From Chiloscyllium plagiosum (taxonomy: Eukaryota), in assembly GCF_004010195.1 (NCBI RefSeq), contig NC_057719.1:35335596-35390582 (forward strand): 54,987 nt of DNA, given 5' to 3'. This document shows, one piece after another, positions 1,075 through 40,770 of this stretch. The number at the start of each line of letters is the position of its first letter. The stretch's first letter is position 1. The position numbers were made by a program, and so were the translations under genes. The notes beneath the pieces are model-generated. The model was not told where the DNA came from, ran no database searches, and saw only the letters and a program-made list of their open reading frames with translations.

Positions 1075-2130
1075 CAAAAGAACAGTGAACAAAGAACAGT
1101 AAGCGCAGGAACAAGCACTTCAGCCCACCAAGCCCTTCTAAACTAAAAGCCTTTTGTCTCTATGCAACCAGTACCTATTCCCTGTCTATTCACGTATCTG
1201 TGAAGATGTCACTTAAACATTGCTATTCTATCTGCATCAACCATCTCCTCTGGCAGTGCATTCCAGGCATTTAGCTTCTTGTGTGTCAAAAAACTTTGAC
1301 TATCAAATCTCCTTTAAACTTTCCCCCTTTATCTTAAATCTATGCCCTCGAGTAATTGATATTTCTATCCCCAGGAAAAAGACTCCAACTCTTCATTCTA
1401 TCCATGCCTCTCAATTTTGTAAACTTCTTTCAAGTTGCCCCTCAATCTCCTACGTTCTCGTGAAGACAAACCAAGATTGTCCAATCTCTCTTCATAACTG
1501 ATATTCTCCAAATCAGGCAACATCTTGGTAACCTTTTATGCATCCTCTCAAAAACCTCCACCTCTTTATGGTAGTGCAGCAACTAGAACTGTATGCAATA
1601 TTCCAAATGCGGCATAACTAAAGAACTATACAGCTGCAAAATGACCAGCTAATTTTTATACTCTACACTCTGACCAATGAACACTAGCGTACCATACACC
1701 TTCTTGATCACCTTATCCACTTATGTTCAAGAGTGTGGTGCTGGAAAAGCACAGCAGGTCAGGCTGAGGAACAGGGAAATCAACATTTCGGGCAAAAGCC
1801 CTTCATCAGGCATTCCTGTGCGTTTCCAGCACCACACTTTTGACTCTAATCTCCAGCATCCACAGTACTCACTTTCACCTTATCCACGTATGCTGTCACT
1901 TTCAGAAAACTATGGACCTAAATGCCTAGATCCCTCAGTGTGTCAACGCATCCAAGGGTTCTGCCATTTATTGTATACCCACCTCCTGCATTAGACCTTT
2001 CAAAATGCGTCCTCATATTTACAGTCATAGAGTCAGAGTTGTACAGCATAGAAACAGACCCTTCAGTCCAAATTGCCCATGCCAACCAGATATCCTAAAT
2101 AAATTTAGTCCCATTTGTCAGCATTTGGTC
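1075..2130 (-). mobile_element. CR1 LINE 3' fragments (two tails), interrupted by a PLE unit at 1726-1874
   Basis: Reverse complement of the CR1 ORF2 C-terminus and 3' UTR. A second HER1-like tail lies at about 2022-2130. Confidence 0.75.
1726..1874. mobile_element. Penelope terminal-repeat unit (family A), fold-back, degenerate hammerhead motif on minus strand at 1786-1810
   Basis: gtgtggtgctggaaa...tttccagcaccacac inverted arms. Flanked by the direct repeat tcaccttatccac[t/g]tatg at 1708-1725 and 1875-1892. Confidence 0.75.
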
Positions 2131-2139
2131 TTTTAAATG

Positions 2140-2508
2140 ATGCAACACCCTGGAGATTATTATTGACCAGAAACTCAACTGGACTCAGCACAAACACAAC
2201 TGGCTACAAGAGTAGGTCAGAGGCTAGGAAAATTAGAAAACTCATCTCATAACTCCCAAAGTCTACCCACCTACAAGCACAAGTCAGGAGTGTGATGGAA
2301 TACTCCCCGCATGCCTGGATGAGTGCAGCACCAACAACACTCTAGAAGTTCGAGACCCTCTAGGACATAGCAGCCCATTCGTTTGGCACTACATCCACAA
2401 GTATGCACTCCTTTCACCATCGACATTCAATAGCAGCAGTATGTACTATCTACAAGATGCACTGCAGAAATTCACCGAAGATCCTCAGACAAAACCTTCC
2501 AAACTCAT
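2140..2508 (+). mobile_element. Non-LTR retrotransposon fragment, second family (CR1/L2 group, possibly Zenon-like)
   Basis: Encodes a QVRSVMEYSP.AWMSAAPTTL.K-type RT C-terminal region. The same family recurs several times in the window. Confidence 0.7.
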
Positions 2509-2509
2509 T

Positions 2510-3430
2510 TAAAAATCACACAACATCAGGTTATAGCCCAACAGGTTTAATTGGCAGCACTAGCTTTCAGAGCACCGCTCCTTCATCAGGTCGTTGTGGA
2601 GGACACAAGTGTAAGACACAGAATTTATAGCAAAAATTTACAATGTGATGTAACTGAAATTATACTTTGAAAAATACCTTGATTGTTTGTTGAGTCTTTC
2701 ATCTATTCGAATACCATGATAGTTTCACTATTTTCAGATGTAAATCTCAATTTTAAAAAAAGTTACATTCTCAGGTTAACTGTAACAATTGATGTTAGCT
2801 AGAGAATACGTTGAAGGTGTTAGCCCCCTGTGTTCTCTGTCTGTGCCATAATGTTTAGACTGATTCTAATCTAAAAAGTGAGTTAACAGAATCTTACATG
2901 AATTCATGCAGTTTTTGAGCAAAGTACAAAGACTATTGGAGAAGGGCCTCAACTGGAACCTTGGGTTCATGCCACATTACAAGTGACCACCAGTGCACTA
3001 TACACACACAGACATTCCTACACACACACACATACACATGGACACACGTATACACAGACACACACACTCACACTTGCATCCCCTCACAGACTTAGACACT
3101 TTATACTCACACATACACACACTCACTCACTCACTCACAACCCCCCACCCCAGACAGACAGACACGCATATAAGTTTGTGGGGTGAATTTGTACTTGCAG
3201 AGTCACATTGAACTTTGCTCAAAAACTGCCCTCACAGACTTAGACACTTTATACTCATACATACACACACTCACTCACTCACAACCCCCCACCCCAGACA
3301 GACACACACGCATATAAGTTTGTGGGGTGAATTTGTACTTGCAGAGTCACATTGAACTTTGCTCAAAAACTGCATGAATTCATGTAAGACTCTGTGAACT
3401 CACTTTTTAGATTAGAATCAGTCTAAACTT
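2510..3430. mobile_element. Penelope-like element (family B) 3' region in inverted arrangement, with (CA)n-rich tract and internal ~150-bp tandem duplication
   Basis: Segment 2851-2928 is inverted relative to 3350-3430. GLNWNLGFMPHYK* at about 2943-2985 resembles a PLE GIY-YIG C-terminus. Duplicated unit at 3080-3229 and 3229-3373. Hammerhead motif at 2558-2594 on the minus strand. Confidence 0.75.
2558..2594 (-). ncRNA. Minimal type-I hammerhead ribozyme motif, family B
   Basis: Minus strand: gac CTGATGA a ggagc ggt gctct GAAA gc TA gtg. It has the core, stem II, an AGCT palindrome as stem III and a partial stem I. Confidence 0.6.
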
Positions 3431-3434
3431 ATGC

Positions 3435-4670
3435 CGTCTAGTTTTGGACTCCCCTACCCCGGGGAAAAGACCTCGACTATTCATCCTATCCATGCCCCTC
3501 ATGATTTTTATAAACCTCCACAAGGTCACACCTCAGCTTCCGTGCTCCAGGCGAAATAGCCCCAACCTATTCAGTCTCTCCTTATAGCTTAAACCCTTCA
3601 ACCCTTGCAACATCCTTGTAAATCTTTTCTGAACCCTTTCAAGTTTCACAACATCTTTCCTAAAGCAGAACTGAAAGCAGTATTCCAGAAGTGGCCGAAG
3701 CAATGTGGCCGCAACATGACATGTCAACTTCTATACTCAATGCACTGACCAATAAAGGCAAGCACACCAAACGCCTTCTTCACTACCCTGCCTACCTGCT
3801 GTTCCACTTTCAAAGAACCATGAACTGCATTCCTCGGTCTCTTTGTTCAGCAACACTCCCCAGGACCCTACCATTAAGTGGTCCAGGTTAAATTCCATCT
3901 GCCATTTTTCCACCCAAGTCTCCATTCTATCTATATTCTGCTGGATCCACTGCCAATTCTCCTCATTATCTGTAGCTCCTTCAATCCTGCATCGCCTTCA
4001 AACTTACTCATCAGACCATCTACACTCTCCTCCAAATTATTAATATATATTTTACAAACAACAGCAGTCCCGGCACTGATCCTTGTGGAACACCACCACA
4101 GGTCTCCAGTCATAAAAACACCCCCCTCCTACTACTCCATGTCAGTTCAGCATCCATCCGACGAGCTCACTGCAGATCATATGTGACTTCACCTGTTGTA
4201 TCAGCCTACCATGAGGGACCTTGTCAAATGCCTTGCTAAAAGTCCATGCAGACAACATCTACCATCTTACTCTCATCAATAATCTTTGTCACTTCCTCAA
4301 AAAAAACTCAATCAAGTTTGTGAGGCATGACCTCCTCCACAAAGCCATGGTGCCTACCATTAATAAAGTTAAACGTCCAACAGGTTTGTTTGGAAGTACA
4401 AGGTTTTGGAGCACTGCTTCTTCATCAGGTAGCAGTCTGAAAGCTTGTACTTCCAAATAAACCTGTTGGACTAGATCCTGGTGTTGTGTGATTTTTAACT
4501 TTGTCAACCCCAGCCCAACACCAGCACCTCCACATCATGGCTATCATTAACAAGTCCATACTTTTTCAAGTGAGAGTAAATCCTGTCCTTAAGAGTCTTC
4601 TCCAATAGTCTCCCTACCACTGATGCAAGACTCACTGGCCTGTAATTTCCCAGATTATCCTTGTTGTCCC
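3435..4670 (-). mobile_element. CR1 LINE ORF2 fragments (C-terminus and RT)
   Basis: ORF-track peptides LLRPLLEYCFQF..KDVVKLERVQKRFTRML, SCLTNLIEFF and GNYRPVSLASVVGRLLE are CR1 RT motifs. Confidence 0.85.
4365..4540. mobile_element. PLE family B terminal-repeat fold-back doublet nested in CR1, with degenerate hammerhead
   Basis: gtccaacaggtttgtttggaagtacaag is inverted to cttgtacttccaaataaacctgttggac, with cttcatcaggt in the middle. Confidence 0.7.
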
Positions 4671-4858
4671 TCTCATGGGAGAGTCGAGGGCTGGAGGGCG
4701 CAGTCTTAGAATAAAGGGGCGCCAAGTTAAGATTGAGATGAGGAGAAATTTCTTCTCTCAAAGGGTTGTCTTTGGAACTCCTTGCACAGGGAGCTGTGGG
4801 GCTGAGTCCTTGGGTATATTTAAGGCTAAGACAGATTCTTAGAATCAAGGGTGAAGAA

Positions 4859-5175
4859 GGGGCGGCACGGTGGCACAGTGGTTAGCACTGCTGCCTCACA
4901 GCGCCTGAGACCCGGGTTCGATTCCCGCCTCAGGCGACTGACTGTGTGGAGTTTGCACATTCTCCCCGTGTCTGCGTGGGTTTCCTCCGGGTGCTCCGGT
5001 TTCCTCCCACACTCCAAAGATGTGCAGGTCAGGTGAATTGGCCATGCTAAATTGCCCATAGTGTTAGGTAAGGGGTACATGTAGGGGTATGGGTGGGTTG
5101 CGCTTCGGCGGGACAGTGTGAACTTGTTGGGCCGAAGGGCCTGTTTCCACACTGTAAGTAATCTAATCTAATCTA
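4859..5175 (+). mobile_element. HE1-type (V-SINE) tRNA-derived SINE, full length and young
   Basis: A box (tggcacagtgg), B box (ggttcgattcc), V-domain gtgtggagtttgcacattctccccgtg, CR1/HER1-like tail ending (aatct)n. Possible gaagaa TSD at 4853-4858 and 5178-5183. Confidence 0.9.
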
Positions 5176-5619
5176 AAGAAGAAAATGGATGTGAAGCAAG
5201 TCAGATCATATATCATCCTACTGAATGGTGAGCAGGCTCAAGGGACCAAGTGCCCTACTCCTGTTCCTAATTCTTATGATCTTACTGATTTGTGCAATGC
5301 CCATCGTCTCCAATCTCTACTCATAGTTACAATTCTCCAGACCTGGCAACATTCTGGTAAATCTTCTTTGTTCTCTCTCCAAAGCAGTTCCATTCTTCCT
5401 GTAAGGTGGTGACCAGAACTGCACACAATACTCCAGTTGTGGGCTCACCAGTGACTTTTACAGTTTTGTCATTATATAATTACTTTTGTATTCTATACCT
5501 CTGCTGATGAAGGAGAGCATTCCACATACTTCCTGTACTACTTTATCTACCTAAACACCTATCTTGCACGCCAAGATCTCTCACTTCATCTATCTCTCTC
5601 AACACATTCCCTTTTTTTA

Positions 5620-5960
5620 TTCATTCACAGGCTGAGGGCATCACTGGCAAGACTAGCATTTATTGCCCATCCCTAATGCCAGAGAGCAATTTAGAGACAA
5701 TCACATTGCTGTGGGTCTGAAGTCACATGTAGGCCAGACCAGGTACGGATGGCAGTTTCCTTCACTAAAAGGACATTAGCGAAGCAGATGGGTTTTTTGG
5801 ATAGTAGACAATGGATTCATAGTCACTGAGAGACTCTTAATTCCTGATATTTATTGAATTCTAATTCCACCATCTGTAGTGGTGGGATTCAAATCCAGGT
5901 CCCCAGAACTTGGGTCTCTCAATTAACAGTCCAGTGATAATACCAGTAGGTCACTGCCTC
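5620..5960 (-). mobile_element. tRNA-derived SINE (second family) sharing its 3' tail with the CR1/L2-group LINE
   Basis: Minus-strand head has A/B-box-like motifs (actggtattatcactggactgttaat...ggatttgaatcccacc). The tail gcatttattgcccatccctaa matches LINE ends at about 31860, 33050 and 51085. Confidence 0.6.
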
Positions 5961-6210
5961 CCCTTATTGGGTTTCCCTTTTCCTGTTCCAATTCCCTAAA
6001 TGCATTACCTCACACTTAGAGTGGAACTTCACCTGCCACTTTCCTACCTGCTCACCAATCCATCTTTATTATTTTGGAGCTTACAGCTATCCTCTACACT
6101 ACTCACTGCATGATCAATTTTTGTGCCATTTGCAAATTTCCCAATTGTGTCTCTCATGTTCAAATCCAATTAATTCATGTGCAAAACAAACAGCAGGGAC
6201 CCTAGCAGGA

Positions 6211-6338
6211 GTTCCTGATGACGGGCTTATGCCCAAAACATCGACTCTCCTGCTCCTGGGATGCTGCCTGACTGGCTGCGCTTCTCCAGCACCAGAGTCT
6301 TCGACTCTGATCTCCAGCATCTGCAGTCCTCACTTTGA
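6211..6338 (+). mobile_element. PLE family A terminal-repeat unit, degenerate hammerhead
   Basis: ttcCTGATGAcgggcttatgcccAAAAcatcg (GAAA mutated), followed by ...ctccagcatctgcagtcctcacttt. Confidence 0.75.
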
Positions 6339-8239
6339 CCGAGCCATGGTCCTAATACCAAGCCGTGCAGAGCACCACTTAAAGAATATGGAACAGTACA
6401 GCACAGTACAGGCCCTTCGGCCTTGATGTTATGCCGACTTTTTACCTTATTCTTAGATCAAACTAACCGACATACCCTACATTTTACTATCATCCAAGTG
6501 TCTATCCAAGAGTTGCTTAAATGTCCTTAATGTATCTGACCCTTCTATCGCTGCTGGCAATGTATTCCATGCACCCACCACTCTCTGTGTAAAGAACCCA
6601 CCTCTGACATCTCCCCTAAACCTTCCTCCAATCATCTTAAAATTATGCCCCCTTGTGATAGCCATTTCCACCTTGGGAAAAAGTCTCTGGCTATCCACTC
6701 TACCTGTCCCACTCATCATTTTGTACACCTCTATCAAGTCATTTCTCATCTTTCTTTGCTCCCTCAGCCTTTCTTCATAAGGCATGCCCTCCAGTCCAGG
6801 CAGCATCCTGGTAAATCTCCTCAGCAGCCTCTCTAAATCTTCCACATCCTTCTTATAATGAGGCGACCAGAACTGAACACAATATTCCAAGTATTGTCTA
6901 ACAAGGACTTTATAGAACTGTAGCATAACCTTGTGGCTCTTAAATTCAATTTACCTGCTAATGAAAGCCATTCCAACAGTTTTCCAATCGCAAGGGCAGC
7001 CATCGACCATTGCCCTTTATTTCCTGCTAATAAGCCAACTTTGGATCCAATGTGATACATTATCCTGTGTTCCATGGATTTTGAATTTTTTGACCAGTCT
7101 GCCATGTGGGACCATGTCAAACACCATATTAAAATCCATGTAGACAAGATCCAATGTACTATCCCTCATCGATCCTCCTTCTCACTTCCCCAAACAATTC
7201 AATCAAATTTGTACGGCATGATCTGCCCTTAATAAAACCCTGCTGATTATCCCTCATTAGTTCATGACTTTCTAAGATAACATCTAAGCTAATCCAATCT
7301 CTCAGGACTAATTTTGATAATTTGCCCATCACAGACGTGGCCTATAATTGTTTTGCACTTCCTTTGTACCTTTTTAAGCAACAGAACTACATTTGCATTC
7401 CTCCAGTCCTCCAGCATCTCACCTGTGTTCAGTGAAGATTGGAAAATATCCTTAGAGCATCAGCTTTTTCCTCCCTGACTTCTTTCAACATCCTAGGGAA
7501 CAATCCAACTGGCCCTGGGGTGATGTATCCACTTTCAAGGATTCCAACTCCTCTAACACTTGTTCTCTCGTTATGATTACTTTGTCCAATATTTCAGGTT
7601 GCTCCTCTTGGATTACTATATCCACATCATCCTTTCCTTTGTGAATATGGAGAAAAAAATTCATTTAAACATCTGCCCATATTCTCACCATCTGCACACA
7701 AGTTCCCTTCTTCATCTCTAATAGGTCACACCGTTTCCTTAACTATCCTTTTGCTCTTTAAAGTTTGGTAAAACATCTTTGAGCTTTCTTTTATCTTGTT
7801 TGCTAACATTTTTTCATACCTTCTCTTTGATTTCTTTGTTTCTTCTTTAACTGAATTCCTGTACTTTCTACATTCCTGTAGGCTATTGGCAATGTTGAGT
7901 CTTTTGGGACTATGATGAGCTTTCTATTTCTGTTTAATTTTCCCTTGTATTTTTATAGACAACTATGGGGGTCTAGATTTGGCAGTACCATTCTTATTTT
8001 GGACAGGACATATCTGCTTTATACGCTAATGATCACACTTTGGAACCTCCCATGGGTTTACAACTAATTTATCCTTTCGCAGTCTTGTCTAGTCTGTCTC
8101 AGCCAAGTCACTTCTTAGTTTTGTAAAATTTGCCATTCCCCAGTTTAAAATACTTACTCCTGATTTATCTTTGTCCTTTCATGTAATAATACTAAATCTA
8201 ACAGAATTGTGGTCACTATCCCTGGTATGGTCTACTGTC

Positions 8240-14420: not shown

Positions 14421-15321
14421 TATTTCAATTTAACAAAAATGTGTGACAGCCATTTATTAGTTCATTTCTCAGGGCAGTGCTCTGACCCAGAAACAATCTG
14501 TCTGGTTTTAAATTTAAACAAAGATTTGCTGTCACGCATCAATCAGCACTAATGCATACATTCTCCTGTGCTACAGGAAAAAGGCCGAGAATGGGAACAG
14601 GGTCGCTTTGCAGAGGAATGGGCATGAACGTAACAGCCGAATGACATCCTTGCGTGCTGTGACCACCCTGCAATCCTATATTTTAAGCTGACATGCTATG
14701 TTTAACTTTTGCAGAACCTTGATACCATAACATTGGCACATCTGACTCTGATTCTTCAAACGTTTTATATAAATTGAACAAAACTCTCCGTTATTTCCCT
14801 CTAGAAGCAAACCGAAGTGCTTTGATGATTCATTTAATGATCTCGTTAACTGGAACGGGAAATCCAAGTTTACAACTGCAGCATTGTTCTGATCTCTCCT
14901 ATAAGGATACTGACACACTGCAGCTCCTTTTTGAAGTAAACATATGACTGGGGCAGGGAGGGGTAATGTGACAGACGTCTTTAAGGTTATCGTAGTTTTG
15001 ATCAGGTAGACAGAGAGACGTTTACACTTGGAGATCAGAATAGAAATTGGGTCATTAAAATAATTTCTTATAAATCTAATGGGGAAATCTAGTGAAACCA
15101 CTTTACTCAGACAGTGGTGTTTATGTGGAAGCCGCTACTACAAGTAGTAGTAAAAACATGCAAAAACATGAGACTTGTTGATGAGGTCAGAAGAAGTGGT
15201 GGAAGGATGTGTATGCGTGATGCAGAGATATCTGCATGATCTTATTGGGACAGACAGCAAATTACTGGATCAGTGGTGCTGGAAGAGCACAGCAATTCAG
15301 GCAGCATCCGAGGACAGGCAA

Positions 15322-15357
15322 AATCGACGTTTCGGGCAAAAGCCCTTCATCAGGAAT
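15322..15357 (-). ncRNA. Minimal type-I hammerhead ribozyme motif, family A, intact core
   Basis: Minus strand: attc CTGATGA a gggc tttt gccc GAAA cg TC gatt. Confidence 0.75.
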
Positions 15358-15425
15358 AAAGGCAGAGAGCCTGAAGCGTGGAGAGATAAGCTAGAGGAGG
15401 GTGGGGGTGGGGATAGAGTAGCATA

Positions 15426-15832: not shown

Positions 15833-17464
15833 GGGGTGTGGACCTGACCAGGTAGTCACGGAGGGAGCGGTCTTTGCGGAAGGCGGAGAGGGGAATATAT
15901 CCCTGGTGGTGGGGTCTGTTTGGAGGTGGCGGAGATGTCGGGGGATGATTTGGTTTATGCGAAGGTTGGTAGGGTGGAAGGTGAGCACCAGGGGCGTTCT
16001 GTCCTTGTTGCGGTTGGAGGGGTTGGGTCTGAGGGCGGAGGTGCAGGATGTGGATAACTTGTTTAACATTTGCTATTCCTTAACCATTTGATTTTGAGTT
16101 ATCTTTTGAATAATTCAACAGCATCGCAATTTCCTCTCATCTATTTGCTGCTGAAAGGTTTGTAAAAAGAAACCTCCAATATTCCCTCTGGCCAAATTTC
16201 ACTGTTAGTCAATAAACCTAAAATTATCTCCAAATCTTTTTTTTTTTTACAATTCATCTCACTTGACTGCACTACCAATTTATTAATAATCCATTCCTTG
16301 CCTTCATTTCCTATATTACTTCTGTTGTCCAGGATTACTCTTTTCCATGGTTAACCTTCCCTTTTTGGCTGTGACTGTGCTTGCTATATCCAGTGTATAA
16401 TATTTCTGAACATAAGCTACTCTTTCTTCAATGCTTTATCCTCAAAACAGTGCTCTCCTCATTCTCACCATCTCAAAATATGCCTTTTGTCATTTAATAT
16501 TCCTTGCCTTCCACCTTATCACAGACAATTCTTTTGTTCTTCCTCCAACCAAAACCCTCCCTTTGCTTCTGTACTTGCTTAAAACATTTTTGATTCTTCT
16601 TTCCGATTCTGGGAATCAAACTTCAGAAAAGATATGCTTATCTTCAGATGGGTACATCATTAATACACCAAAATCAGACCTATTGTGATTATGTAAGTAA
16701 TTGCTACGCAGGAAAAGGTAAATTTAAGAAATGCTCACAAATCATCAACTAAACACCAATATATTTTTAAAAGAAATAGAACCATACAAACGTTGTGACT
16801 TAGAAAGAGGCCATTCAGCGTAGTGTGTCTGCACCAACCCAAAATAAAATTGCCTATTTAAGCAGGTTATAGTTTTCAGGTGCAGATCCAGCCATCTTCT
16901 AGGACTTGAGAATTTCCATAGATCAGAATGAATTTTAGTTTTTAAATATTTGTGACAGTGAGACATTACTTACAAATCAGCAAGAGAATGAAGACAGTGT
17001 ATGCGATAGAGAATGACATTGACCTCAAGAATACTGGAAACATACTGTTTATGGAATCTTATTGAATCTTTCGTTTTTAAGTAGTTTTATTTATCCAAAT
17101 TAATTTTGACTAGTATCACCAATCTGCTTCATCGACCATTAAACACTCTCAACTAATATAACAAGACTCAACAGTTTTGTATTATTGCATAATTTCAGTA
17201 ACATAATTACACTCAATTTTTTATGCCGTGGTAATTAACACCAATCATTACATTTCCTAGATGGATATGCCTTTTGAAATTAGAGTACATTAAGTTTTTG
17301 CTGTTATCCTTTATCTTTTGAACATTGTGTATAATTTAACACTCCCTCTGTGAGGCAAAGAATATTGTTAAAAAAAATCATTCTTGCAGGTATCTTTATA
17401 CAACATGGAATGAGATAGTCATTTCTCATTTTTATTTTTGTTTTTTTTAAAATTGTTTTTACAA

Positions 17465-24938: not shown

Positions 24939-25284
24939 TATTAATTCAAGCAAGTGCAACGTATTTTGATGGGAAAAAATTGGTTATTTCAACAAACAGT
25001 TGAGGCCTGGTGATAGCAGTCATTGAAGAGAGGTTATAACTTTTGGGTTTTCAACCAGTTATTCTTCCAAATTTAAAATTACCAGTCACCCCTGTTCCTA
25101 CAGTCTGTGATCCCCTTGATCTGGAGAACAAGTTTTACTGACTAGTATCAAGCTAAATGCAGAGTTTGGAAATTTTGCGTTCACCATTGATGTTCTCCTT
25201 ACTTAACAGGATGGATTATTCCCAAAAAAAAGCATATATTTTATATGCCAAAATTAACCTGCGCTGCCTTGTATGTACTTTGTT

Positions 25285-25880
25285 AAAAATCACACAAAAA
25301 CAGGTTACAGTCCCACCAGTATATTTGGACGCACAAACTTTCGGAGCGCTCCTCCTTCATCGGGTAGCCAGTGGGGCAGGATCATAGGACACAGAATACA
25401 TTGTAAAAGATCAAAATGTCAAACAACTTATGTGATGTATTGAACAAACTAAGATTGTGTTAAGTCTTTAATCACTTAGAATGAGTTACAGGTTTTGATT
25501 CATTAATATGTAAATCCCAGAACTTTAATTTAAAAAAGAGTGACATCTCAGCTCAGACAATGCATTAAAGGTGTGAGGTTTGAGTCTAGGAGAAAGTGAA
25601 GACTGCAGATGCTCGAGATCAGAGTCAAAAAGTGTGGTGCTGGAAAAGCACAGCCAGTCAGGCAGCAACCGAGGAGCAGGAGAGTTGATATTTTGAGCAA
25701 AAGCTCTTCATCCTGATAACAGCTTATGCCCGAAACAGCCACTCTCCTACTCCTTGGATGCTGCCTGACTGCCTGTGCTTTTCCAGCACCACACTTTTTG
25801 ACTGTGAGGGTAGAGTCTATCTGTATTACAACCTCAAGTCAGACCAGTTCTATTTCCAAAGTAGGAATTTATAAAATGTC
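25285..25880 (-). mobile_element. PLE family B terminal region containing a nested family A fold-back doublet (25589-25802)
   Basis: Homologous to 2510-2900. The nested unit is flanked by tgtgagg[tt/gt]..gagtcta repeats at 25572-25588 and 25803-25819. Confidence 0.75.
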
Positions 25881-25967
25881 ATAGTTATCTCTTCTGGGAT
25901 ATAAGTGACCTATACAAGAAGGACTGATTGCACCTGAATTGGAATCTGATTGCACCTGAATAGACCC

Positions 25968-26905: not shown

Positions 26906-26909
26906 GGAA

Positions 26910-29900
26910 GGGGGCCTGATATACCTTCAGGAAGATTTTAGAGCTGCTGGGACGATTTAAACTAGTAAGGTGGGGGGGTGGGACCAGGGAGATAGTGAGG
27001 AAAGAGATCAATCTGAGACTTACAGTTGGGAAAAGGAGCAAGTCAAACAGTCAGGGCAGGCAGGAACAAAGCAGAGAACAAGGTAGGACTGATAAATTAA
27101 ACTGCATTTACTTCGATGCAAGAGGCCTAACAGAGAAGGCAGATGATCTCAGATCATGGTACTGGGAGATCATAGCAATTACAGAAACATGGCTCAGGGA
27201 TGGATAGGGCTAGCCCTCTTGCAAGGATGCTTAATATTCCAGGACAAATGCTAGAGGAAGGATAGAAAGTGGGGCGAGAGAAAGGAAGTGGCGTTTTGAT
27301 AAGGGATTGCATTACTGATGCACTTAGGGAGGATATACTTGGGCATATATCCAGTAAAGTTATTTGGGTGGAACTGAGAAATAAAAAAGAGATAATCACC
27401 TTATTGGGATTGTACCATATAGCTCTTAATAGTCAGCGGGAAGTGGAGAAACAAATTTGTAAGGAGATTTCAGTTATCTGTAAGAATAACAGGGTGATTA
27501 TGGTGGGGGATTTTAACTTTCCAAACATAGACTGGGACTGCCAGAGTGTTAAGGGTTTAGATAGAGAGGAATTTGTTAAGTGTGTACAAGAAAATTTTCT
27601 GATTCAGTATATGGATGTACTTACTACAGAAGGTGCAAAACTTGAGGAGAAAGTGAGGTCTGCAGATGCTGGAGATCAGAGCTGGAAATGTGTTGCTGGA
27701 AAAGCGCAGCAGGTCAGGCAGCATCCAGGGAACAGGAGAATCGACGTTTCGGGCATATGCCTTTCTTCAGGAATCACTGCAAAACTTGACCTACTCTTGG
27801 GAAATAAGGTGACTGAGGTGTCAGTGAGGGAGCACTTTGGCACCAGTGACCATAATTCTATTTGTTTTAAAATAGTGATGGAAAAGGATAGACCAGATCT
27901 AAAAGTTGAAGTTCTAAATTGGAGGAAGACTAATTTTGACAGTATTAGGCAAGAACGTTCAAAATCTGATTGGGGGCAGATGTTCACAGATAAAGGGACA
28001 GCTGGAAAATGGGAAGCCTTCAGAAATGAGATAACGAGAGTCCAGAGACAGTATGTTCCTGCTTGGGTGAAAGAAAAGGCTGGTAGGTGTAGGAAATACT
28101 GGATAACTCGAGGAATTGAGTTTTTGTTTCAGAAAAAGGAAGCACATGTCAGGTATAGACGGAGAGATCAATTGAATCCTTAGAAAGTATAAAGCAGTAG
28201 AAGTATATTTATGAGGAAAATCAGGAGGGCAAAAAAGGGGACATGAGATAGCTTTGGCAAATAGGGTTAAGAGGAATCCAAAGGGATTTTATAAATACAT
28301 TTAAGGACAAAGGGTAGCTAGGGAGAGAATAGGGCCCCTCAAAGATCAGCAAGGCAGCCTATGGGTGGAACCACAGGATACTAAACGAGTATTTTGCATC
28401 AGTGTTTACTGTGGACAAGGAAATGGAAAATATAGAAAGTGGGGAAATAGATGGTGACATCTTGAAAATGTCCATATTACAGGTGGTGGTGCAGGATGCC
28501 TTGAAATGCATAAAAGTGGATAAATCCCCAAGACCTGATCAGGTGTACCCTAGAACTCTGTGGGAACTGGGCAAGTGATTACTGGACCCCTTGCTGAGAT
28601 ATTTGTATCACCGAGAGTCACAGGTGAGGTGCCGGAAGACTGGAGGTTGGCCGACGTGGTGCCACTATTTTAAAAAGGTGGTAAGGAAAAGCCAGGGAAC
28701 TATAGATGGTGAGCCTGACATCAGTGATGGGCAAGTTGTTGGAGGGAATCATGAGGGACAGGCTATACATGTATTTGGAAAGGCAAGGACTGATTAGGGA
28801 TAGTCAGCATGGGGGACTTCGTGCATGAGAAATCATGTCTCATGAACTTGATTGACTTCTTTGAAGAAGTAACAAAGAGGATTGATGAGGGCAGAGCGGT
28901 AGACATGATCTATATGGACTTCAGTAAGATGTTCGACAAGGTTCCCCATGGGAGACTGGTTAGCAAGGTTAGATCTCATGGAATACAGGGAGAACTAGCC
29001 ATTTGGATACAGATCTGGCTCGAAGGTAGAAGATAGAGGGTGGTGGTGGTGGAGAATGAAAGCCTGTGACCAGTGGTGACCCACAAGGATTGGTGCTGGG
29101 TCCATTGCTTTTCACAAGTATATAAATAATTTGGATGTGAACATAAGAGGTATAGTTAGTAAGTTTGCAGATGACACCAAAATTGGAGGTGTAGTGGACA
29201 GCAAAGAGGGTTACCTCAGATTAGAACAGGATCTGGACCAGATGGACCAATAGGCTGAGAAGTGGCAGATGGAGTATTTTTCAGATAAATGCGAGGTGCT
29301 GCATTTTGGGAAAGCAAATCTTAGCAGGACTTATACACTTAATGGTAAGGTCCTAGGGAGTGTTGCTGAACAAAGAGACCTTGGAGTGCAGGTTCATAGC
29401 TCCTTGAAAGTGGAGTCGCAGGTCGATAGGATAGTGAGGGTGTTTGGTATGCTTTCCTTCATTGGTCAGAGTATTGACTACAGGAGTTGGGAGGTCACGT
29501 GTTGGCTGTACAGGACATTGGTTAGGCCATTGGTAGAATATTGCGTGTAATTCTGGTCTCCTTCCTATCAGAAAGGATGTTTTGAAACTTGAAAGGGTTC
29601 GGAAAAGATTTCCAAGGATGTTGCCAGGGTTGGAAGATTTGAGCTATAGGGAGAGGCTGAACAGGCTGGGGTTGTTTTCCCTGGAGCATCGGAGGCTGAG
29701 GGGTGACCTTATAGAGGTTTACAAAACTATGAGGGGCATGGATAGGGTAAATAGGCAAAGTCTTTTCCCTGGGGTCAGAAATTCCAGAACTAGAGGGCAT
29801 AGGTTTAGGGTGAGAGGGGAAAGATATAAAAGAGACCTATCGGGCAACATTTTCACACAGAGGATGGTACATGTATTGAATGAACTGCCAGAGGAAGTGG

Positions 29901-30080
29901 TGGAAGCTGGTACAATTGCAACATTTAAGAGGCATTTGGATGGGTATATGAATAGGAAGGGTTTGGAGGGATATGGGCCGGGTGCTGGCAGGTGGGACTA
30001 GATTGGGTTGGGATATCTGGTTGGCATGGACGGGTTGTACCAAAGGGTCTGTTGCCGTGCTGTACATCTCTATGACTCTA
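26910..30080 (+). mobile_element. Long CR1 (HER1-like) LINE: APE endonuclease, RT and 3' tail, frameshifted
   Basis: IIAITETWL, MVGDFNFPNIDW and SDHNSI (endonuclease). SCLMNLIDFFEEVTK..YMDFSK.FDKVPH and KFADDTKIGG (RT). Tail ctctatgactcta. Confidence 0.93.
27646..27777 (-). mobile_element. Solo 132-bp PLE family A unit with hammerhead motif (27739-27774), inserted in the CR1 endonuclease
   Basis: Perfect 12-bp TSD tgcaaaacttga at 27634-27645 and 27778-27789. Minus strand attc CTGAAGA aaggc atat gccc GAAA cg TC gatt. Confidence 0.85.
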
Positions 30081-31603
30081 TATTACACTTGATAATGTAA
30101 CTATATTGAATCTATACAAATAAACATTGTATTTCATTGATATAGCTCACAGCTGGACAACAAGTAAAATATTGGTGATTCACAACAAAAAGTTACATTT
30201 CCATGTTGTTCTGCGTTGACATTAAAGCCAAGATATTGCACGTCAGCCTCAAATAGTCAATGTTTTGTACAGTCATTCCATTCTCAAGATAAATTGAAAA
30301 CTGATCTGAGCCACATACTTCATTATTTGTGGCTATACAGAAACAGCAAGCACCATTATAAAATTCAATAGAAACTGAAGATACTGGAAATACTCCGGTT
30401 GGGGGAAAAAAGACCAATTTCTGAATCAGAAAAAGAAAAAAGTTAGAAAAGCTTGACAGCAAGTATAGACACAGGCAGAGGAACAACAATCACAACATTA
30501 TTCCGAGATATGAATCCAAGCAGTGGAGAGTTTTTCTCAATTCCTCTTCAAGCACACAGTCAGTGAAATGCTGCATTGATGTCAAGGGCAATCACTCCTA
30601 TTATGCCTCTTGCGTTCAGTTCTTCAACTCTGATGAAGTTGAGACAATGTCTGAAGCTATGTGGTCTTGTTGAAAGCCAAAAAGAACAACAATGAGCATG
30701 TTATGGTGATCGAGTGCTACTTGATCACACTATTGACAACCCCTTCAATCACTTCACTGGTGATTGAGGAGATGACATCAGAACAGCAAATACAGCATAA
30801 CAAATTGAAGGTACCGGTAAATTACTGTTCTACCTAGGAGGAATGCTTGGGCCATCAATACTGGGATGAAAAGAAGGGTAGGTTTTATATTTCCATGCAG
30901 AGGAATGACACTGGGTGAAAGTCAGGAGTTAAATGAAGAGTGGACTGAGTTTCATTACAGGAACACTCCCTTTGGAATGCTGACTAGCAAAAGAAAGGAA
31001 AAGACTGTTTGGTGGTGGCATTAAGGTAGCAGAAAATTTCCAAATAACTGAGAAGGTTGAGCTTGGAAAGTGAAGGGATAGGAGAGAAGAGCAGAAATTA
31101 GATGAATGTGGTCAAAGGGAATACTTGTTTAAGCAAAAATGACAAAATTGGCAAAGTAATGCAATGGAAAATACTGTTATCTGAAAAAAGCATGTGTTAT
31201 TAAAATGCAAACCGTTGGCTGCAGACGAACTTCCATTCATCTCATTTTTAAGGTCATGGACATTTGAAATACAGAAAACATTAGTTGTACAATCTGTTTA
31301 AGCAATGTTAAATATCTCAACTTCAAAACACAGGTAATATTTCCATATAGTAATTGCCACAGGATGCATTTATGTTTGGCGTTTTACATAAAGACATAGT
31401 TGGTATGGTTCTTTTTCATGTTCAAGAATCCCAGCAAATGCAATTGAATAATGTCCAGCCAGCAGCAAAATCACTAATAAATTAATCAGTTTGCTGCTTG
31501 CTGTAACCAGTGCTAATTTTTTGTACGTAATAGTGTGGATATAATTCCATCCAACTGTAGCCTGCCATATATCAGCAAAATACATACCTAGTAGTGAGCC
31601 TGC

Positions 31604-31701
31604 TCTATTCCTGATGAAGGGCTTTTGCCCGAAACGTCAATTTTCCTGCTCCTCGGATGCTGCCTGAACTGCTGCGCTTTTCCAGCACCACTCTAATCTA
31701 C
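31604..31701 (+). mobile_element. Solo PLE family A unit with hammerhead motif (31607-31642)
   Basis: attc CTGATGA a gggc tttt gccc GAAA cg TC aatt. Flanking agcctgc repeats at 31597-31603 and 31702-31708. Confidence 0.8.
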
Positions 31702-31839
31702 AGCCTGCAATTATAGCTGATTCAAAATATCAGACAGATGCACAATTGGTCGAATTAATACTGCAGTTAATCAGAACTCTTACATAGTAACTTAAAACAT
31801 TGGATCAAATTATCGCAAAATGAAATATTTACTTGTCTT

Positions 31840-33860: not shown

Positions 33861-34766
33861 AGCTTCATCTCGCTATACACTTTCTGTCAGTGTTTAAATA
33901 AGAAAGATGTTAATCCTATATGCACATTGTCAGTATAGCAAGAATTAAGCTGCTGACTGGCATTAATTTACAAATTACATATAAAAAGGGAACAGGTGAT
34001 GAGCTACATATGCGATGAGCAGTACAATAGAGTAGTAGGAATGGGTTCAAAACACAACAGCTCCAGAGGTGTGTTATAACATTTTTCAACAGGTTCATTA
34101 GGAAATATTTACACTGGAGTTCTCAATTAAGCCTATCCAAAGGAAAGAGTGTCTGGAGTTCTATTTCACCAACAGGAATAGACCTAAAATGACATATATA
34201 GCTCAGCTTGCTGGCATCCAAATGCTACAGAAATTGGAGTATACAGTCCTTTTCAACAGTTTGAAAACTTGCAAAATTGCACAATGTTGCATAATAAAGA
34301 TTGTTAATAGTCAGGTTTCAGGAGGGCAGGACCATAGTTTGATTTGCTGGCTAAAGGTTGCCACTGCCAACCAAGCTGCTGTCCCTCAATATTGCACTAG
34401 AGGATTTACCAACTGTGTGCCCCAGTCCAACTGTCAGGAGAATCAGAAGTTTGCTTCACTTCAGTTGTAACCATATTCTACTAAATCTAGTTTTTAAAAA
34501 AAAACTTATCTATTGCCAGAGTACAAAGCTAGCTGTTCAAAACAAAATCTTTCACAGAAGACGGGGCAATGCCTTTGGTACCCATCCTCAGTTGCCCTTG
34601 AACTGTATGGTTTAGTGGCTTGCTAGACTGTTTCAGTGGGCAACAAAGAGTCAGCCACAGCATTAGCCAAGGCCTCTGAATTATTAATGCAATGAGATTA
34701 ACACTTAGCCACTGCCTTCAACTTCAAAACAGGAGACTGATGTTCTAAAGTCAAACTTCAGAAATG

Positions 34767-34880
34767 ACAACCACCTGATGAAGGAGCAGCTAGTGATTTC
34801 AAATAAACCTGATGGACTATAACCTGGTGTTGTGTGATTTTTAACTTTGTACACCCCAGTCCAACACCAGCATCTCCAAA
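34767..34880 (+). mobile_element. Solo PLE family B unit, hammerhead partly deleted
   Basis: ccac CTGATGA aggagc agctagtg (stem II 3' arm and GAA lost). Perfect TSD ttcagaaatg at 34757-34766 and 34881-34890. Confidence 0.8.
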
Positions 34881-36258
34881 TTCAGAAATGCCATGTTTCT
34901 TGTAGATATTAGATATGTAGCAGCATAGCTTTCATATGTATCTGCAAAAGTAATGATCATATTTGTATTTGTTGGTATGCCATACTTAACTGTGTAACTA
35001 ATATTTATACCAACTGCAGAGGTTTGAAAATTTAATGATTTAGCACCTTTCTTCTTGTATAACTGTTCAAAATTAAACTGATAGAAAGCAGAAGAGGAGG
35101 CTGCTGCGTACTATCAGAGCCCTGAGGGAATATATTTTGTTAGGTTATTATAAGGCACTATTAAATAAATTTCACTTTATATTCAGCTTATATTGAGACA
35201 GGTACACAAATGCTTTACATCATACTAACTGCCTCAGTCTAAAAAAGCTCAATTTTCCAGCATTAAATTGTCACACCTTAAATGACTTTCTTATTAAAAT
35301 ATCTTATCTGTAACTCTCTCATAGAATGCAAAAATAGTATACAGTATTCTCTAGCAGTTACTAAGGGAGCAGTCTAATTAAGAGAATTAAACAGCATCAT
35401 AAAACAAGGCAAAAGTTCAAGATGATGGTAAGTCATTTGAACAAAGGCCAAACTCAAGATCAGTAAATGCAAATACATACAGCTGGTATCTGAAACCGAC
35501 TTTTACAAATGTCTAGCTGGAGATTTTAACAAAGGTATTATTCTACAAAACATTAAGTGCCAAATGCCAACGTTTTCCAGTTATTGTTGACTGAGAGATA
35601 TGCTGTCAAACCTTTTCAACATGCACCCAATAGTTCAGATGCAAGAATACCAAATTTCCAAGGGAGAAAACATTTGTACTGCATGAAAAGGGAATGCTCA
35701 TTATTCACCAAGTCAAATCTGTGGAGAAATTGGCACGAGAATGTAACAGGAAACTATTGTTCACCATGCTTTGGTTTAATTTTTAAGACGACACAACACC
35801 AGAACATATTCCTTCTGTTTGAAGAGGCAGCAACCTGATTATGAAAATATGTAAGCTCTAGAAAGTCTTGGTGAACTACAATATAAGCCCAACTGAAAAT
35901 CTTAAAATTGCCCGTTAGCACAGTTTTCAGCACACTCTGGATTGTGCAACAAGTGCTCTCTAATTGCCGAAAAACTCTAACATTAGTCTTATGTTCGAAC
36001 ATAAGAAACAGGGACAGGAGTAGGCTATTCGGCCCTTCAAGCCAGCTCACTATTCACAGCTGGTTCAACATTCCTCGTGTTCGCTTTCCTGTCATTTGCC
36101 CATTATCACTGGCTCCCTACTGATCAAGAAGTTCAGTCTTAAACATACACAAGTACTCTGCCCTCACAACTCTGTGACAAAGTGTTCCAAAGATTTTACC
36201 ATTCGATAGAGGAGAATGAGTGAGGAATGAGAGTCCTAATGACTATCTCCAGTGAGAG

Positions 36259-36444
36259 GTCAGGCAGCATCCAGGGAACAGGAGATTCGACGTTTCGGGC
36301 ACAGGCCCTTCTTCAGGAATGGCCTGAAGGGCCTGTGCCCGAAACGTCGAATCTCCTGTTCCCTGGATGCTGCCTGACCTGCTGTGCTGTTCCAGCAATA
36401 AAGTTTCAACTTTGATCTCCAGCATCTGCAGACCTCACTTTCTC
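36259..36444. mobile_element. Very young PLE family A fold-back doublet with 16-bp TSD
   Basis: TSD ctatctccagtgagag at 36243-36258 and 36445-36460. Perfect 55-bp stem between 36257-36311 and 36326-36380. Confidence 0.88.
36285..36320 (-). ncRNA. Minimal type-I hammerhead ribozyme motif, best-preserved copy
   Basis: ATTC CTGAAGA a GGGC ctgt GCCC GAAA cg TC GAAT. Perfect 4-bp stem I, 4-bp stem II, ACGT palindrome and GUC cleavage triplet. Confidence 0.8.
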
Positions 36445-38272
36445 CTATCTCCAGTGAGAGACAATCCAGCCACAGCGCCAGTGAGAGACTATCTAGCCAC
36501 AGTGCCACTGAATATCAAGGGGTGATCATCAATATCCTGGAGGTTGCCACTGACCAGATAAGACAATCTCGCCATACTGGAGATCTCTGAACTGACTCCA
36601 AAGAAATAACATCTTTCCTTCAATAATGCGATAGAAACTGCTCCCAGTACTCAAGATCTCAAAAGTACCTTGTATTCCTACACTCCAACCTCTTTAAAAT
36701 AAACAGACGATATTAGCCTTCCAGATTACCTGCTGCACCGGTGTGCTAGCTTTCTGTGATTAATGCACAATTACCCCCAAGTCCCCTCTGTGTTGCAACC
36801 TTCATCCATTTTTCCCCATTTAAATAATACTCTACTTTTGTTCTCCCTTCAAATATGAACAATTTCACATTATCCTTCATTCACCAACTTTTTGCCCACT
36901 CATTTAATCTATCAACATCTCTCTATAAACTGTTTGTACCAATTTCATAATTTGCCTTTCCACCTATTTTTTGTGTCGTCCACAAATCTGGCTACATACA
37001 TTTGCTTCCATCCTCCAAGTCACTAATATATATATAATGTAAACAGGTGCAATCCCAGCAATAATTTCAATGGAAATCCCCACTGATTATAAGTTGCCAG
37101 CTTGAGAAATAACCCCTCTATCCCCACTTACTGTTTCCTAGTCATTATCCAATTCTCTACCCACAACAGTACTCCTGGGGAAAACATAGACTTTACTCTG
37201 AAGACTTAACATTTTGTGAGCTATTGTGACAAATACCTTTTGGAAGTCCAAATACAAGTCCAACACCAGTACTGGTTCCCGTCTATCCACTCTTGTTGAA
37301 ACTTCCTCGAAAAGCTAACAAATTAGTCAGACATGGTTTTCCTTTCATGAAGGCACGCTGACTCTACTTGATTAGATTATGATTTTCCAAATGTGCTGCC
37401 AAATGTTTTAAGTTTTACGAATACAAGTATGGTTAGTACACTGCTGATTGAAAATATCCAAAGGTTCGTTGATTCAATCCACCATTTATTGGAACATCAA
37501 CCTAATGATTTACTTGGCATTGTATCGGCAATAGAAACATCTAAATCAAATTAATCACATATGTGGTAGTCTTGAAAGTGAAGTCCTATTAGTGCAAAAT
37601 AAAATTGTATTCTTACTGTATAATAGGAGCAGCACGAAATAGCTAAGACCATAAAGTATAAGAATAGAATTAGGCTATTCCACAAATTAAGTTTGCTTTA
37701 CCACTAGATCATGGGTAATATGTTTCTCAACCCCATTCTCCTGCCTTCTCCCTGTAACTCTAGATTCCCTCACCAAGCAAGAACCTATCTTTGTCTTAAA
37801 TGCACTCAATGACTTGGCCTCCACAGTCTTCTGTGGCAACGAGTTTCACAGATTAACTACCCTCTGGCTGAAGAAACATCGCCTCATCTCAATTTTAAAG
37901 CATGATACCTTCACTCTGATGCTGTGCGTTTGGATTCTAGTCTCTCGTACTATTGGAAACATCTTCTCTACCTCCACGCTTTCATCTCACTATTCTGTAA
38001 ACTTCAATCAGAATGCCCCCATCCTCCTAAATTCCTTCGAATACTGACCCAAATTTTCAACCGCCTCTCATATAACAAGCCCTTCATATCCATGATCATT
38101 CATGTAAACCTCCTCTGGATGCCCTCCAATGCTGGCACACCATTCCATCAATACAAGGCCCAAAACTCTCAATATTCCCAAACGCGATCTGACAAAAGCC
38201 TTACACAGCCTTAACTGTAAGTTTCTGTTCTTTTATTCTAGCCCTTTCGAAAAGAATGCTAACATTGCATTT

Positions 38273-40770
38273 ATAGAGTCAAGAGATGCAGCAAGGAAAC
38301 AGACCCTTCAATCCAACTCGTCCATGTTGATCAGATATCCTAAATTAATCTAGTCACACTTGTCAGCATTTGGTCGATATCCCTTTAAACCTTTCCTATT
38401 TATCTGCCCATCGAGATACCTTTTAAATGTTGTATTTGTACCAGCCTCCACCACTTCCTCTGGCAGCTCATTCCATACATGCACCACCCTCTGTGAAAAA
38501 GTTGTCCCTTAGGTCCGTTTTAAGTCTTTCCACTCTCACCCTAAACCTATGCCCTCTAAATTTGGACTCCCTTAACTCAGGAAAAAGATTTTGTCTTTAT
38601 ACCCAATCCAAGCCCCTCATGATTTTATGAACCTTGATAAGGTCACCCCTCCCTCCAATGCTCAGGGAAAAACAGACACAGCCTATTCAGCCTCTCTTTA
38701 TAGCTCAAACCCTCCAACTCTGGCAACATCCTTATAAATCTTTTCTGAACCTTATCAAGTTTCACAACATCCTTCCTATAGGAGGGAGACCAGAATTGCT
38801 CACAATATTCCAAAAGTGGCTTAACCAATGTCCTGTACACGCACAACATGACCTCCCAACTCTTGTACTCAATGCTCTGACTAACAAAGGAAAGCATACC
38901 AAACGCCTTCTTCACTATCCTATCTACCTGTGATTCATGCCTCCTAGTTCTGGACTTCCCCCACCCCAGTGAAAAGACCTTTTATATTTATCCTATCCAT
39001 GTCCTTCATGATTTAAAAAAACCTCTATAAGGTCACTCCTCAGCCTTTGATGCTCCAGGGAAAACAGCCCCAGCTTATTCAGCCTCCTTAGGACCTTACC
39101 ATTAAGTGTGTAAGTCCTGCTCTGATTTGCTTTTCCAAAATGCAGCACCTCACATTTATCTAAATTAAACCAGGACCTTACCATTAAGTGTATAAGTCCT
39201 GCCCTGATTTGCCTTTCCAAAATGCAGCCTCTTACATTTATCTAAATTAAACTCCACTGCCACTCCTCAGCTCATTGCCACATCTGATCAAGATCCTGTT
39301 GCGCTCTAAGGTAACCTTCTTCGCCATCCCTTACACCTCCAATTTTGGTGTCATATGCAAACATACTAACTATACCACCTATGCTCACATCCAAATTATT
39401 CATTTCAATGATGAAAAGCAGTGGACCCAGCACCGATCCTTGTGGCACACCACTGGTCACAGGCTTCCAGTCTGAAAAGCAAACCCTCCACCACCACCCT
39501 TTGCCTTCTACCTTCCAGCCAGTTCTGTATCCAAATGGCTAGTTCTCCCTGTATTCATGTGATCTAACCTTGCTAATCAATCTACCATGAGGAACTTTGA
39601 TGAACGCCTCACTCAAGTCCATATAGATCATGTCCACCGCTCTGCCCTCAATCTTTTTCGTTACTTCTTCAAAAAACTCAATCAAGTTAGTGAGACACAA
39701 TTTCCTCCTACAAAGCCAGGTTGACTCACCCTAATCAGTCCTTGCTTTTCGAAATACATGTACATCCTGTCCCTCAGGATTCCCTCCAATAATTTGCCCA
39801 CCACCAACGTCAGGCTCACTGATCTATAGTTCCTTAGTTTTTCCTTACCACCTTTCTTAAATAGTGGCACCATGTTAGCCAACCTCCAGTCTTCCAGTAC
39901 CTTGTCTCTGACTATCTATGATCCAAATATCTTAGAAAAGGGCACAGCAATCACTTCTTGGATTAGTGGTGCTGGAAGAGCACAGCAGTTCAGGCAGCAT
40001 CCGAGGAGCAGCAAAATCGACATTTCGGGCAAAAGCCCTTCATCAGGAATAAAGGCAGAGCCTGAAGTCCTCATATTCTCCTTCCCTGTAGGGTACAACT
40101 GATCAAGTCCTGGGATCTATCCACCTTTGTGCATTTCAAGACATCCAGCACTTCCTCCTCTGTAATATGGACATATTTCAAAAAGTCACCATCTATTTCC
40201 CCACATTCTATATCTTCCACGTCATTCTCCACTGTAAACACTGATGCAAAATATTTATTTAAAATCTCCCCCATCTCCTGCATGTGACACATAGGCTGCC
40301 TTACTGATCTTTGAGGGGTCCTATTCTCTCCCTAGTTAGCCTTTTGCTCTTAATGTATTTGTTTAATCCCTTTGGATTCTCCTTAACCCTAATTGCCAAA
40401 GCTATCGCATGTCCCCTTTTCACCCTCCTGATTTTCCTCTTAAGTATACTCCAAAGACTCACTTGATCACTACTGTCTATACCTGACATATGCTTCCTTC
40501 ATTGTCTTGACCAAAACCTCAATTCCTCTAGGCATCCAGCATTCCCAACATCAACCAGCCTTGCCTTTAAACCTAACAGGAACATTGTGTATCTGGACTC
40601 TCGTTATCTCAATTTCGAAGGCTTCCCATTTTTCAGTCATCCCTTTACCTGCGAACATCCACCTCCCAAACAATTTTTGAAAGCTCCTGCCTAATACCGT
40701 CAAAATTGGCCTTCCTCCAATTTAAAACATCACCTTTTAGATCCAGCTCATTCTCTTCCATCACTATTTA
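38273..40770 (-). mobile_element. Long CR1 (HER1-like) LINE, same family as 26910-30080, internally rearranged
   Basis: ORFs TSGVPQGSVLGPLLF, NMVPLFKKGGKEK..NYRSVSLT and EMGEILNKYFASVFT. Duplicated blocks at about 38935-39087 and 39087-39250. Confidence 0.9.
39959..40067 (-). mobile_element. PLE family A unit nested in CR1, hammerhead with CpG-type mutation
   Basis: Minus strand attc CTGATGA agggcttttgccc GAAA tg TC gatt. Same terminus as 15266-15376. Confidence 0.8.

Follow-up and report, generated by a model that had tools for sequence, protein, structure and literature searches.

Penelope-like elements (PLEs) carry minimal type I hammerhead ribozymes with a short stem I, an extra base between A9 and 10.1, a G10.1-C11.1 pair and a palindromic remnant of stem III, and these occur mostly as dispersed single motifs thought to be truncated PLEs, with some close pairs on opposite strands (Cervera and de la Pena 2014, PMC4209133). 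Type I wiring puts the cut 3' of the core, and the motif is drawn in this way in the same paper. Endonuclease-positive PLE insertions have a tail of 30-40 bp on one end, an inverted head-to-head copy and a target duplication, and their pseudo-long terminal repeats (pLTRs) contain TATA and initiator (Inr)-like motifs (Craig et al. 2021, PMC8557442; Arkhipova et al. 2013, PMC3846280). The sequence analysed here, called the window, is a 54,987-nucleotide stretch of the Chiloscyllium plagiosum genome (contig NC_057719.1, positions 35,335,596 to 35,390,582), in which the initial annotation had recognised twelve sites with short hammerhead-bearing units of two sequence families, A and B. These units and their relatives elsewhere in the genome share the features listed above. 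They are short insertions of the hammerhead end module of two PLE families, and the commonest class likely results from reverse transcription that starts in the 5' leader of the element RNA and runs off its likely capped, uncut end.

The motif, the tail, the inversions and the duplications have already been described for PLEs, and the elements of the window are themselves ordinary PLE debris. Exact core patterns match 89,248 times in the genome for family A and 20,761 times for family B, and the reversed patterns do not match at all; the hammerhead motif is far above chance. This total of more than 110,000 cores greatly exceeds the 4,000-9,000 given for coelacanth and frog in PMC4209133, whose available text holds no mapping of copy ends and reports no 5' peak. 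Also, truncation is variable in the PLEs of PMC8557442 and PMC3846280, whereas here about 40% of arms end within a single narrow interval and show a G at the junction.

To describe these ends, positions are numbered from C3, the first base of CTGANGA, as position 0. The predicted cut falls after +27 in family A (GUC) and after +28 in family B (CUA). Copies were anchored on the 30 bases 3' of the predicted cut, so that core-less copies enter the counts as well. The anchored sample draws on the window with its flanking sequence, on 800 kb from four other contigs chosen regardless of content, and on contig C1, from which the first matches to three anchor patterns were taken; about five fetched regions were widened to include a neighbouring core match. 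End counts omit 100 arms found only in core-selected loci, censor arms that end at a gap (17 of family A, 1 of family B) and count each arm of an inverted pair once, and nearest-neighbour tests use one arm per insertion.

The 5' ends cluster just upstream of the core, at -9 to -1 in 93 of 247 family A arms and at -11 to -1 in 54 of 139 family B arms. Stop rates per base are 0.089 (A) and 0.078 (B) within this peak, roughly tenfold those elsewhere (0.004-0.012 in every other bin), and 0.009 (A) and 0.003 (B) within 2 bases of the cut. Taken by themselves, the 800 kb chosen regardless of content have 21 of 52 family A and 8 of 23 family B arms in the peak. Conservation of the core across subfamilies means that an end could be spurious where a reference sequence is missing; an adjoining inverted arm or a duplication confirms 74 of the 93 family A and 42 of the 54 family B peak ends. 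RNA reads from another data set, which represent many copies, have 192 loose ends exactly at family A -4. Unit lengths are indeed not smoothly distributed, as the initial annotation had suspected. However, its reading of ends near the ribozyme as the outcome of cleavage fails, because they lie 5' of the core and the predicted cut lies 3' of it. An alternative cut upstream of the core, with type III wiring, was considered for subfamily A2, and no matching stem I and triplet could be found by eye. A splice acceptor was also rejected as the cause of the peak, since the peak copies have no common upstream exon.

The peak starts coincide with a nucleotide preference and with promoter-like sequences. 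In subfamilies A2 and A3, 5,541 of 9,492 copies have G as the foreign base directly before -4, and in family B 1,338 of 1,836 have it before -8, against an expected share of about 25% taken from the 40% G+C of the window. Among non-inverted family A copies, G is found at the junction in 12 of 21 and one base further out in 2 of 21 (p 0.0025), and at non-peak ends it precedes 21 of 85 family A and 10 of 50 family B arms. TATAAA begins at -38 or -40 in 39 of 56 long family B copies, 30-32 bases from the peak start, and TTATC lies at -34 to -36 in 82 of 84 family A copies typed by that motif. Both peak starts (A -4, B -8) fit initiator consensus sequences. Untemplated G at full-length L1 and SVA ends has been ascribed to copying of the cap (PMC3287187). 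Two symmetric family B inverted pairs, at C2:44328391-44328461 and C2:43379296-43379367, have both arms starting from -8 with G at -9, and their arms are 1-2 bases apart.

The 3' ends are bimodal (264 family A and 140 family B arms), and the two fixed positions, about 35-40 bases apart, delimit the PLE tail. Of 118 inverted insertions, 110 carry the tail on one arm and not on the other, a pattern that matches the two internal start sites and the extension of both strands seen in vitro for Poseidon PAc of Anolis (Frangieh et al. 2024, PMC11167929). There, too, two internal reverse transcriptase (RT) start sites bracket the tail and both target strands are extended; hammerhead cleavage is dispensable and uncut RNA is the main substrate. 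The available text of that paper does not mention genomic products of run-off at the RNA start. Flanking repeats scoring at least 9 were found in 76 of 273 copies scanned, of which 72 are shorter than 27 bp and mostly 12-16 bp.

It is RNA starts, rather than ribozyme cuts, that the favoured explanation invokes. RT would begin copying inside the 5' leader of the element RNA and run off its 5' end, which is likely capped and uncut and lies a few bases before the hammerhead; the 5' peak would mark the start of transcription. If the peak is the capped RNA start, the RNA was not cut by the ribozyme, and ribozyme cutting does not set these ends. The junction G would stem from a C added either opposite the cap or where the template ends, and this C may often pair with a target G or with one in the partner arm. 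For inverted units, both cut target strands would prime, one from each start site, and the two complementary DNAs (cDNAs) may be joined via short homology. Most products would be dead ends that lack an upstream promoter. Together, the more than 110,000 ends of the two families make up an in vivo archive consistent with internal initiation on uncut RNA, and the proposal names exact positions that can be tested: the RNA start, the poly(A) site and two RT starts.

Several observations weigh against this proposal. The peak is uneven among family A subfamilies (5 of 41 arms in A1, 49 of 112 in A2 and 8 of 13 in A3), so that it is weak in A1, and a few peak calls resemble long copies of subfamilies for which there is no reference. 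About 40% of the arms that reach the peak extend further upstream, and a second route must thus exist. G is not enriched over the whole peak window in family A (11 of 45). In 7 of 12 solo family A copies with G, the G, often as GAT, is also in the target duplication, so target preference could contribute. In 4 of 8 inverted family A cases and 3 of 5 inverted-class family B cases, the G reads as a continuation of the partner arm (junction context was read for 8 family B junctions). Sharing of the G with target or partner is nevertheless expected if a terminal C of the cDNA anneals to G, and at two loci (L080 and L175) the junction G is in neither target nor arm. Family A has the TTATC motif in place of a TATA box, and the transcription start is placed indirectly, the raw RNA run being a 3'-end library. 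Finally, starts exactly at the family A cut, scored with three foreign bases before them, number 491 genome-wide, compared with 200 at +32, or about 1.9-fold the neighbouring control after correction for chance mismatches. The corresponding count at -4, with one foreign base, is 9,492, from a pattern set that overlaps with the one used for the cut site and is not identical to it. In 43 of 100 listed cut-site cases the start is preceded by CAG or CCT, bases that also belong to the element, and short homology therefore accounts for some of these cases; there may be a minor cleavage-derived class of ends.

Two small groups were seen among the same 100 listed copies. In 20, CCT stands directly before the first post-cut base, as if the core between two GA dinucleotides had been skipped, and these could reflect RT skipping a folded hammerhead. 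In 6, just the last base before the cut is absent.

A more conventional account is that the units are ordinary 5' truncations from the 3' pLTR, with a peak of local cause, such as stalling of RT or a bound protein at the upstream edge of the hammerhead, together with target microhomology such as GAT. We regard this as unlikely, although 5' truncation is the rule in PLEs (PMC8557442), ends occur everywhere at a low rate, in many solo copies NAT is shared between the duplication and the element start, and the enzyme studied in vitro prefers ATT targets (PMC11167929). A block formed by RNA structure should halt RT on the 3' side of the fold and not after it. The same excess of G before the different family B sequence, the 30-32 base spacing to TATAAA, and the G bases outside target and arm at L080 and L175 are also left unexplained. 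In a variant that is compatible with the favoured explanation, solo pLTR copies that still have a promoter would give rise to a short capped noncoding RNA, and this RNA would serve in trans as the template. The units would then descend in a single generation from non-autonomous copies and would not come as by-products from full-length transcripts. The 5' peak and the G are equally expected under this variant, the promoter-like upstream region survives in thousands of copies, and in a rotifer a pLTR alone is enough for mobilisation in trans (PMC3846280). However, the lizard enzyme needs RNA downstream of the start sites (PMC11167929), which solo copies lack, and we give this variant little chance.

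Animal non-LTR retrozymes (LTR, long terminal repeat) offer a further comparison: they are noncoding, carry a type I hammerhead, are related to pLTRs, and exist also as dispersed monomers (PMC7229834; bioRxiv 10.64898/2026.07.22.740005); the 2026 survey by Li, Clavereau and Pollet includes one cartilaginous fish (bioRxiv 10.64898/2026.07.22.740005). Retrozymes are head-to-tail tandems freed as circles by double cleavage (Cervera and de la Pena 2020, PMC7229834), whereas the units here are solo or head-to-head and have their ends on the wrong side for cleavage. The initial annotation had offered independently mobilised, ribozyme-processed units as one explanation, that is, non-autonomous mini-elements resembling retrozymes or short interspersed elements whose RNA ends are made by cleavage. 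The very high copy number, the duplications belonging to individual units and the small excess of ends at the cut are in its favour, as is the derivation of animal retrozymes from pLTRs (bioRxiv 10.64898/2026.07.22.740005). In family A, nearest neighbours also share the short or long label somewhat more often than when shuffled (0.61 versus 0.52, p 0.014), in a test of lineages that rests on about 90 aligned bases, but within subfamilies this resemblance falls to p 0.086 (0.613 versus 0.558, n=111), and family B has none (0.516 versus 0.518, p 0.53, n=60). The main subfamily variants contain both short and long copies, and the 3' ends correspond to the two fixed termini of PLEs, one including the tail and one lacking it. 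Cleavage predicts core-less units that start from +28 or +29, and the peak, about ten times larger, is at -4 or -8. The 57 cores in the 800 kb include one same-strand pair less than 1 kb apart, no head-to-tail hammerhead array was found in the window or the 800 kb, to which the search was limited, and RNA reads span the cut with no pile-up of ends. Mini-elements are thus largely refuted for the bulk of units, and of the explanations considered this one seems the most improbable.

The assignment to PLE minimal type I hammerheads with a palindromic stem III made in the initial annotation holds, and PLE coding sequence adjoins family B as well as family A. At locus L077, open reading frames (ORFs) with Pfam GIY-YIG matches end just upstream of family A cores. 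At L061, an RT ORF (a weak match, E 0.004) lies between two family B cores; this copy is deleted where GIY-YIG would lie, and GIY-YIG was not seen for family B. The RT regions of A and B are 38% identical over 103 amino acids, and so represent two PLE families. At L061, a single locus, the family B tail runs into an ATG at +121, at the end of the tail, which opens an ORF; in contrast, the ORF of Poseidon PAc starts inside the hammerhead (PMC11167929). No 5' leader running into an ORF start was found for family A by a shared-sequence search downstream of the tail, and the 20 best RT loci are gapped or truncated. A family A tail joined directly to mid-RT at L065 was read as a partial tandem. A 99-amino-acid family A RT segment has 19,299 candidate matches in the genome, many in frames of several hundred codons. 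Such long open RT frames suggest that family A may have been active recently.

An Rfam scan of the window gave no hammerhead match, and the motif was therefore called from its sequence pattern and base pairing; two Rfam microRNA models that did match had matched inverted repeats. The core is intact in 127 of 163 aligned family A copies and in 50 of 81 of family B. In family A (163 of 168 arms), variability is 0.027 in the core, 0.170 in loop II and 0.178 downstream, and the low core value is consistent with constraint on source elements; the downstream figure for family B was set aside, being inflated by a 2-base indel. The covariation-like support that had been claimed proves to be a difference between the two families: within families no compensatory stem II pair occurs in more than one copy, and stem II changes are mostly CpG decay. 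The predicted hammerhead fold is the lowest-energy structure for one of six window cores and lies within 1 kcal/mol of it for one more. Related motifs cut weakly as dimers (PMC4209133), and another was cut only with protein, insertion being independent of cutting (PMC11167929).

RNA reads were taken from run X21, in which raw poly(A) reads amounting to 2% of the run were used; its species was not shown to be that of the window, and most reads are 90-95% alike. Family B reads leave the element into poly(T), on the sense strand, 499 at +60 and 407 at +57. This poly(A) site lies approximately 30 bases past the predicted cut; ATTAAA precedes it by about 12-15 bases, a GU-rich tract follows, and the DNA there is not A-rich. 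No pile-up of ends at the cut was seen among the rows listed. AATAAA or ATTAAA is kept in 121 of 145 sampled family B copies. Family B spreads a working poly(A) signal through the genome, and its poly(A) reads may come from host transcripts that end in dispersed copies. For family A, reads are on both strands, and no poly(A) loose end is among the 6 of 155 rows listed. Among the A subfamilies, AATAAA occurs in A3 alone, where it lies shortly before the short 3' end (window 36326-36445 is an example).

In LTR retroelements, minus-strand strong-stop cDNA is made when RT starts in the leader and runs to the cap. Family B resembles such systems in the order of its parts: a promoter, a repeat from the RNA start to the poly(A) site, and then a leader. 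It differs from them in having no transfer RNA primer site or integrase and in being primed by nicked target DNA, and strand transfer is here only proposed. It is conceivable, if somewhat doubtful, that the PLE pLTR is a true U3-R-U5 repeat, that the short units are failed strand-transfer jumps, and that the hammerhead within R is a switch able to remove the cap or the poly(A) tail. Family B RNA would start at -8 and be polyadenylated at +57 to +60, with RT starting at +82 and +121. Because both RT start sites are beyond the poly(A) site, polyadenylated RNA could be primed only in the 5' leader. RT would then make strong-stop cDNA to the cap, and this cDNA would have to jump to the hammerhead-containing 3' repeat to copy the ORF. 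If true, tens of thousands of short units would be a genomic record of LTR-like strand transfer in a target-primed element, and the reading bears on how PLE terminal repeats are regenerated and what the hammerhead does. Chimeras were rejected as evidence for strand transfer: one of 45 copies with A1 upstream sequence has an A2 core that starts at the peak, but its tail is also mixed (L363:1457-1630). A 2008 paper concludes that PLE repeats are not made by reverse transcription (PMC2377424). No report of a 5' peak with a junction G, or of a U3-R-U5 reading of pLTRs, was found in the literature searched, with subscription papers mostly outside the search.

In the window, all twelve annotated sites have family A or B sequence, and no further unit of either family was found there. 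Hammerhead cores had been assigned to these sites in general; all 11 core bases are intact at seven, and the core is broken at five. The reported size range of 100-215 bp leaves out two family B units of 299 and 328 bp. Direct repeats had been noted at six or more units. A scan of 11 units against 150 random controls (15265-15425, which runs into a gap, was omitted) found repeats that score at least as high as the best control at five, chance-level repeats at two and none at four. Four units are head-to-head inverted pairs rather than single units.

Three of these pairs belong to family A. The insertion at 1726..1880 has a minus arm from -4 to about +83, with an intact core (C3 at 1809), and a plus arm that is a short 3' piece with the tail, and it lies between 18-bp duplications (1708-1725 and 1875-1892). 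At 25588..25798 both arms begin inside the core, at +2 and +10, so that neither core is full; one arm has the tail, and the duplication is 17 bp with 2 mismatches (25572-25588 and 25803-25819). The young insertion at 36257..36445 has a minus arm from -5 to +59 with an intact core (36316), a plus arm from +5 to +124 with the tail, and a perfect 16-bp duplication (36243-36258 and 36445-36460). The fourth pair, of family B, occupies 4367..4538: its minus arm starts from about -8 and its core, at 4428, is broken (G12>A), its plus arm runs from +18 to +120 with the tail, and it is flanked by a 13-bp repeat with 2 mismatches. This repeat is at chance level, as is the 7-bp repeat of 31603..31700; 9 of 150 controls score as high.

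Solo family A units include 27645..27774 (minus strand, -4 to +125, with tail), which has an intact core at 27770, a broken first stem II pair, a G directly before -4 and a perfect 12-bp duplication (27634-27645 and 27778-27789), and which is inserted into an endonuclease-domain fragment of a long interspersed nuclear element (LINE). The unit at 31603..31700 (plus strand, -8 to +89) has an intact core at 31611, and the first base after its cut is A, so that a stem I pair is lost. No duplication was found for 6212..6336 (plus strand, -3 to +121, with tail), whose core at 6215 is broken (G12>A), or for 39959..40067 (minus strand, -23 to +87, no tail), whose core at 40046 is intact. The remaining family A sequence is a pLTR end at 15265..15425 (minus strand, -72 to +88, intact core at 15353) that runs into a 407-base N gap. 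It had been described as terminating a PLE coding fragment. PLE coding sequence does lie beyond the gap, on the same strand as the hammerhead (15833..16079, the region between RT and endonuclease, with 68% identity over 57 amino acids to the GIY-YIG-bearing PLE ORF of L077), but the link between the two spans the gap.

Family B is represented by two long copies on the minus strand, neither with a duplication that could be found. That at 2509..2836 extends from -247 to +82 and has an intact core (2589), TATAAA upstream, ATTAAA downstream and no tail; an older one, at 25282..25580, extends from -249 to +81 and has a broken core (U4>C at 25363). The solo unit at 34767..34882 (plus strand, -8 to +118, with tail), annotated at 34771, has an internal deletion that removes the 3' strand of stem II and most of GAAA. 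Its duplication (34751-34766 and 34875-34890), 16 bp with 2 mismatches, ties with the best control and ends in G directly before -8.

LINE RT or endonuclease fragments are found at 20183-20590, 25960-26960, 27266-28183 and 29537-30001; two of them have Pfam RVT_1 and Exo_endo_phos_2 matches, and several hammerhead units lie inside such repeats. A perfect 129-bp tandem duplication at 54398-54656 crosses the junction of a CR1-like RT piece and another piece, which we take to resemble PLE RT from its motif. Two-copy tandem duplications are also present at 3081-3373 (144 bp) and 39090-39252 (82 bp). A large WDR20-like exon (L079:1538-2923, minus strand; E 5e-279, WDR20 residues 139-567) lies about 7 kb before the start of the window. 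The missing N-terminal exons of this gene are expected in the direction of the window or past it, and the units may therefore lie in an intron. For three of the four family B units in the window, the poly(A) signal is on the strand of this gene.

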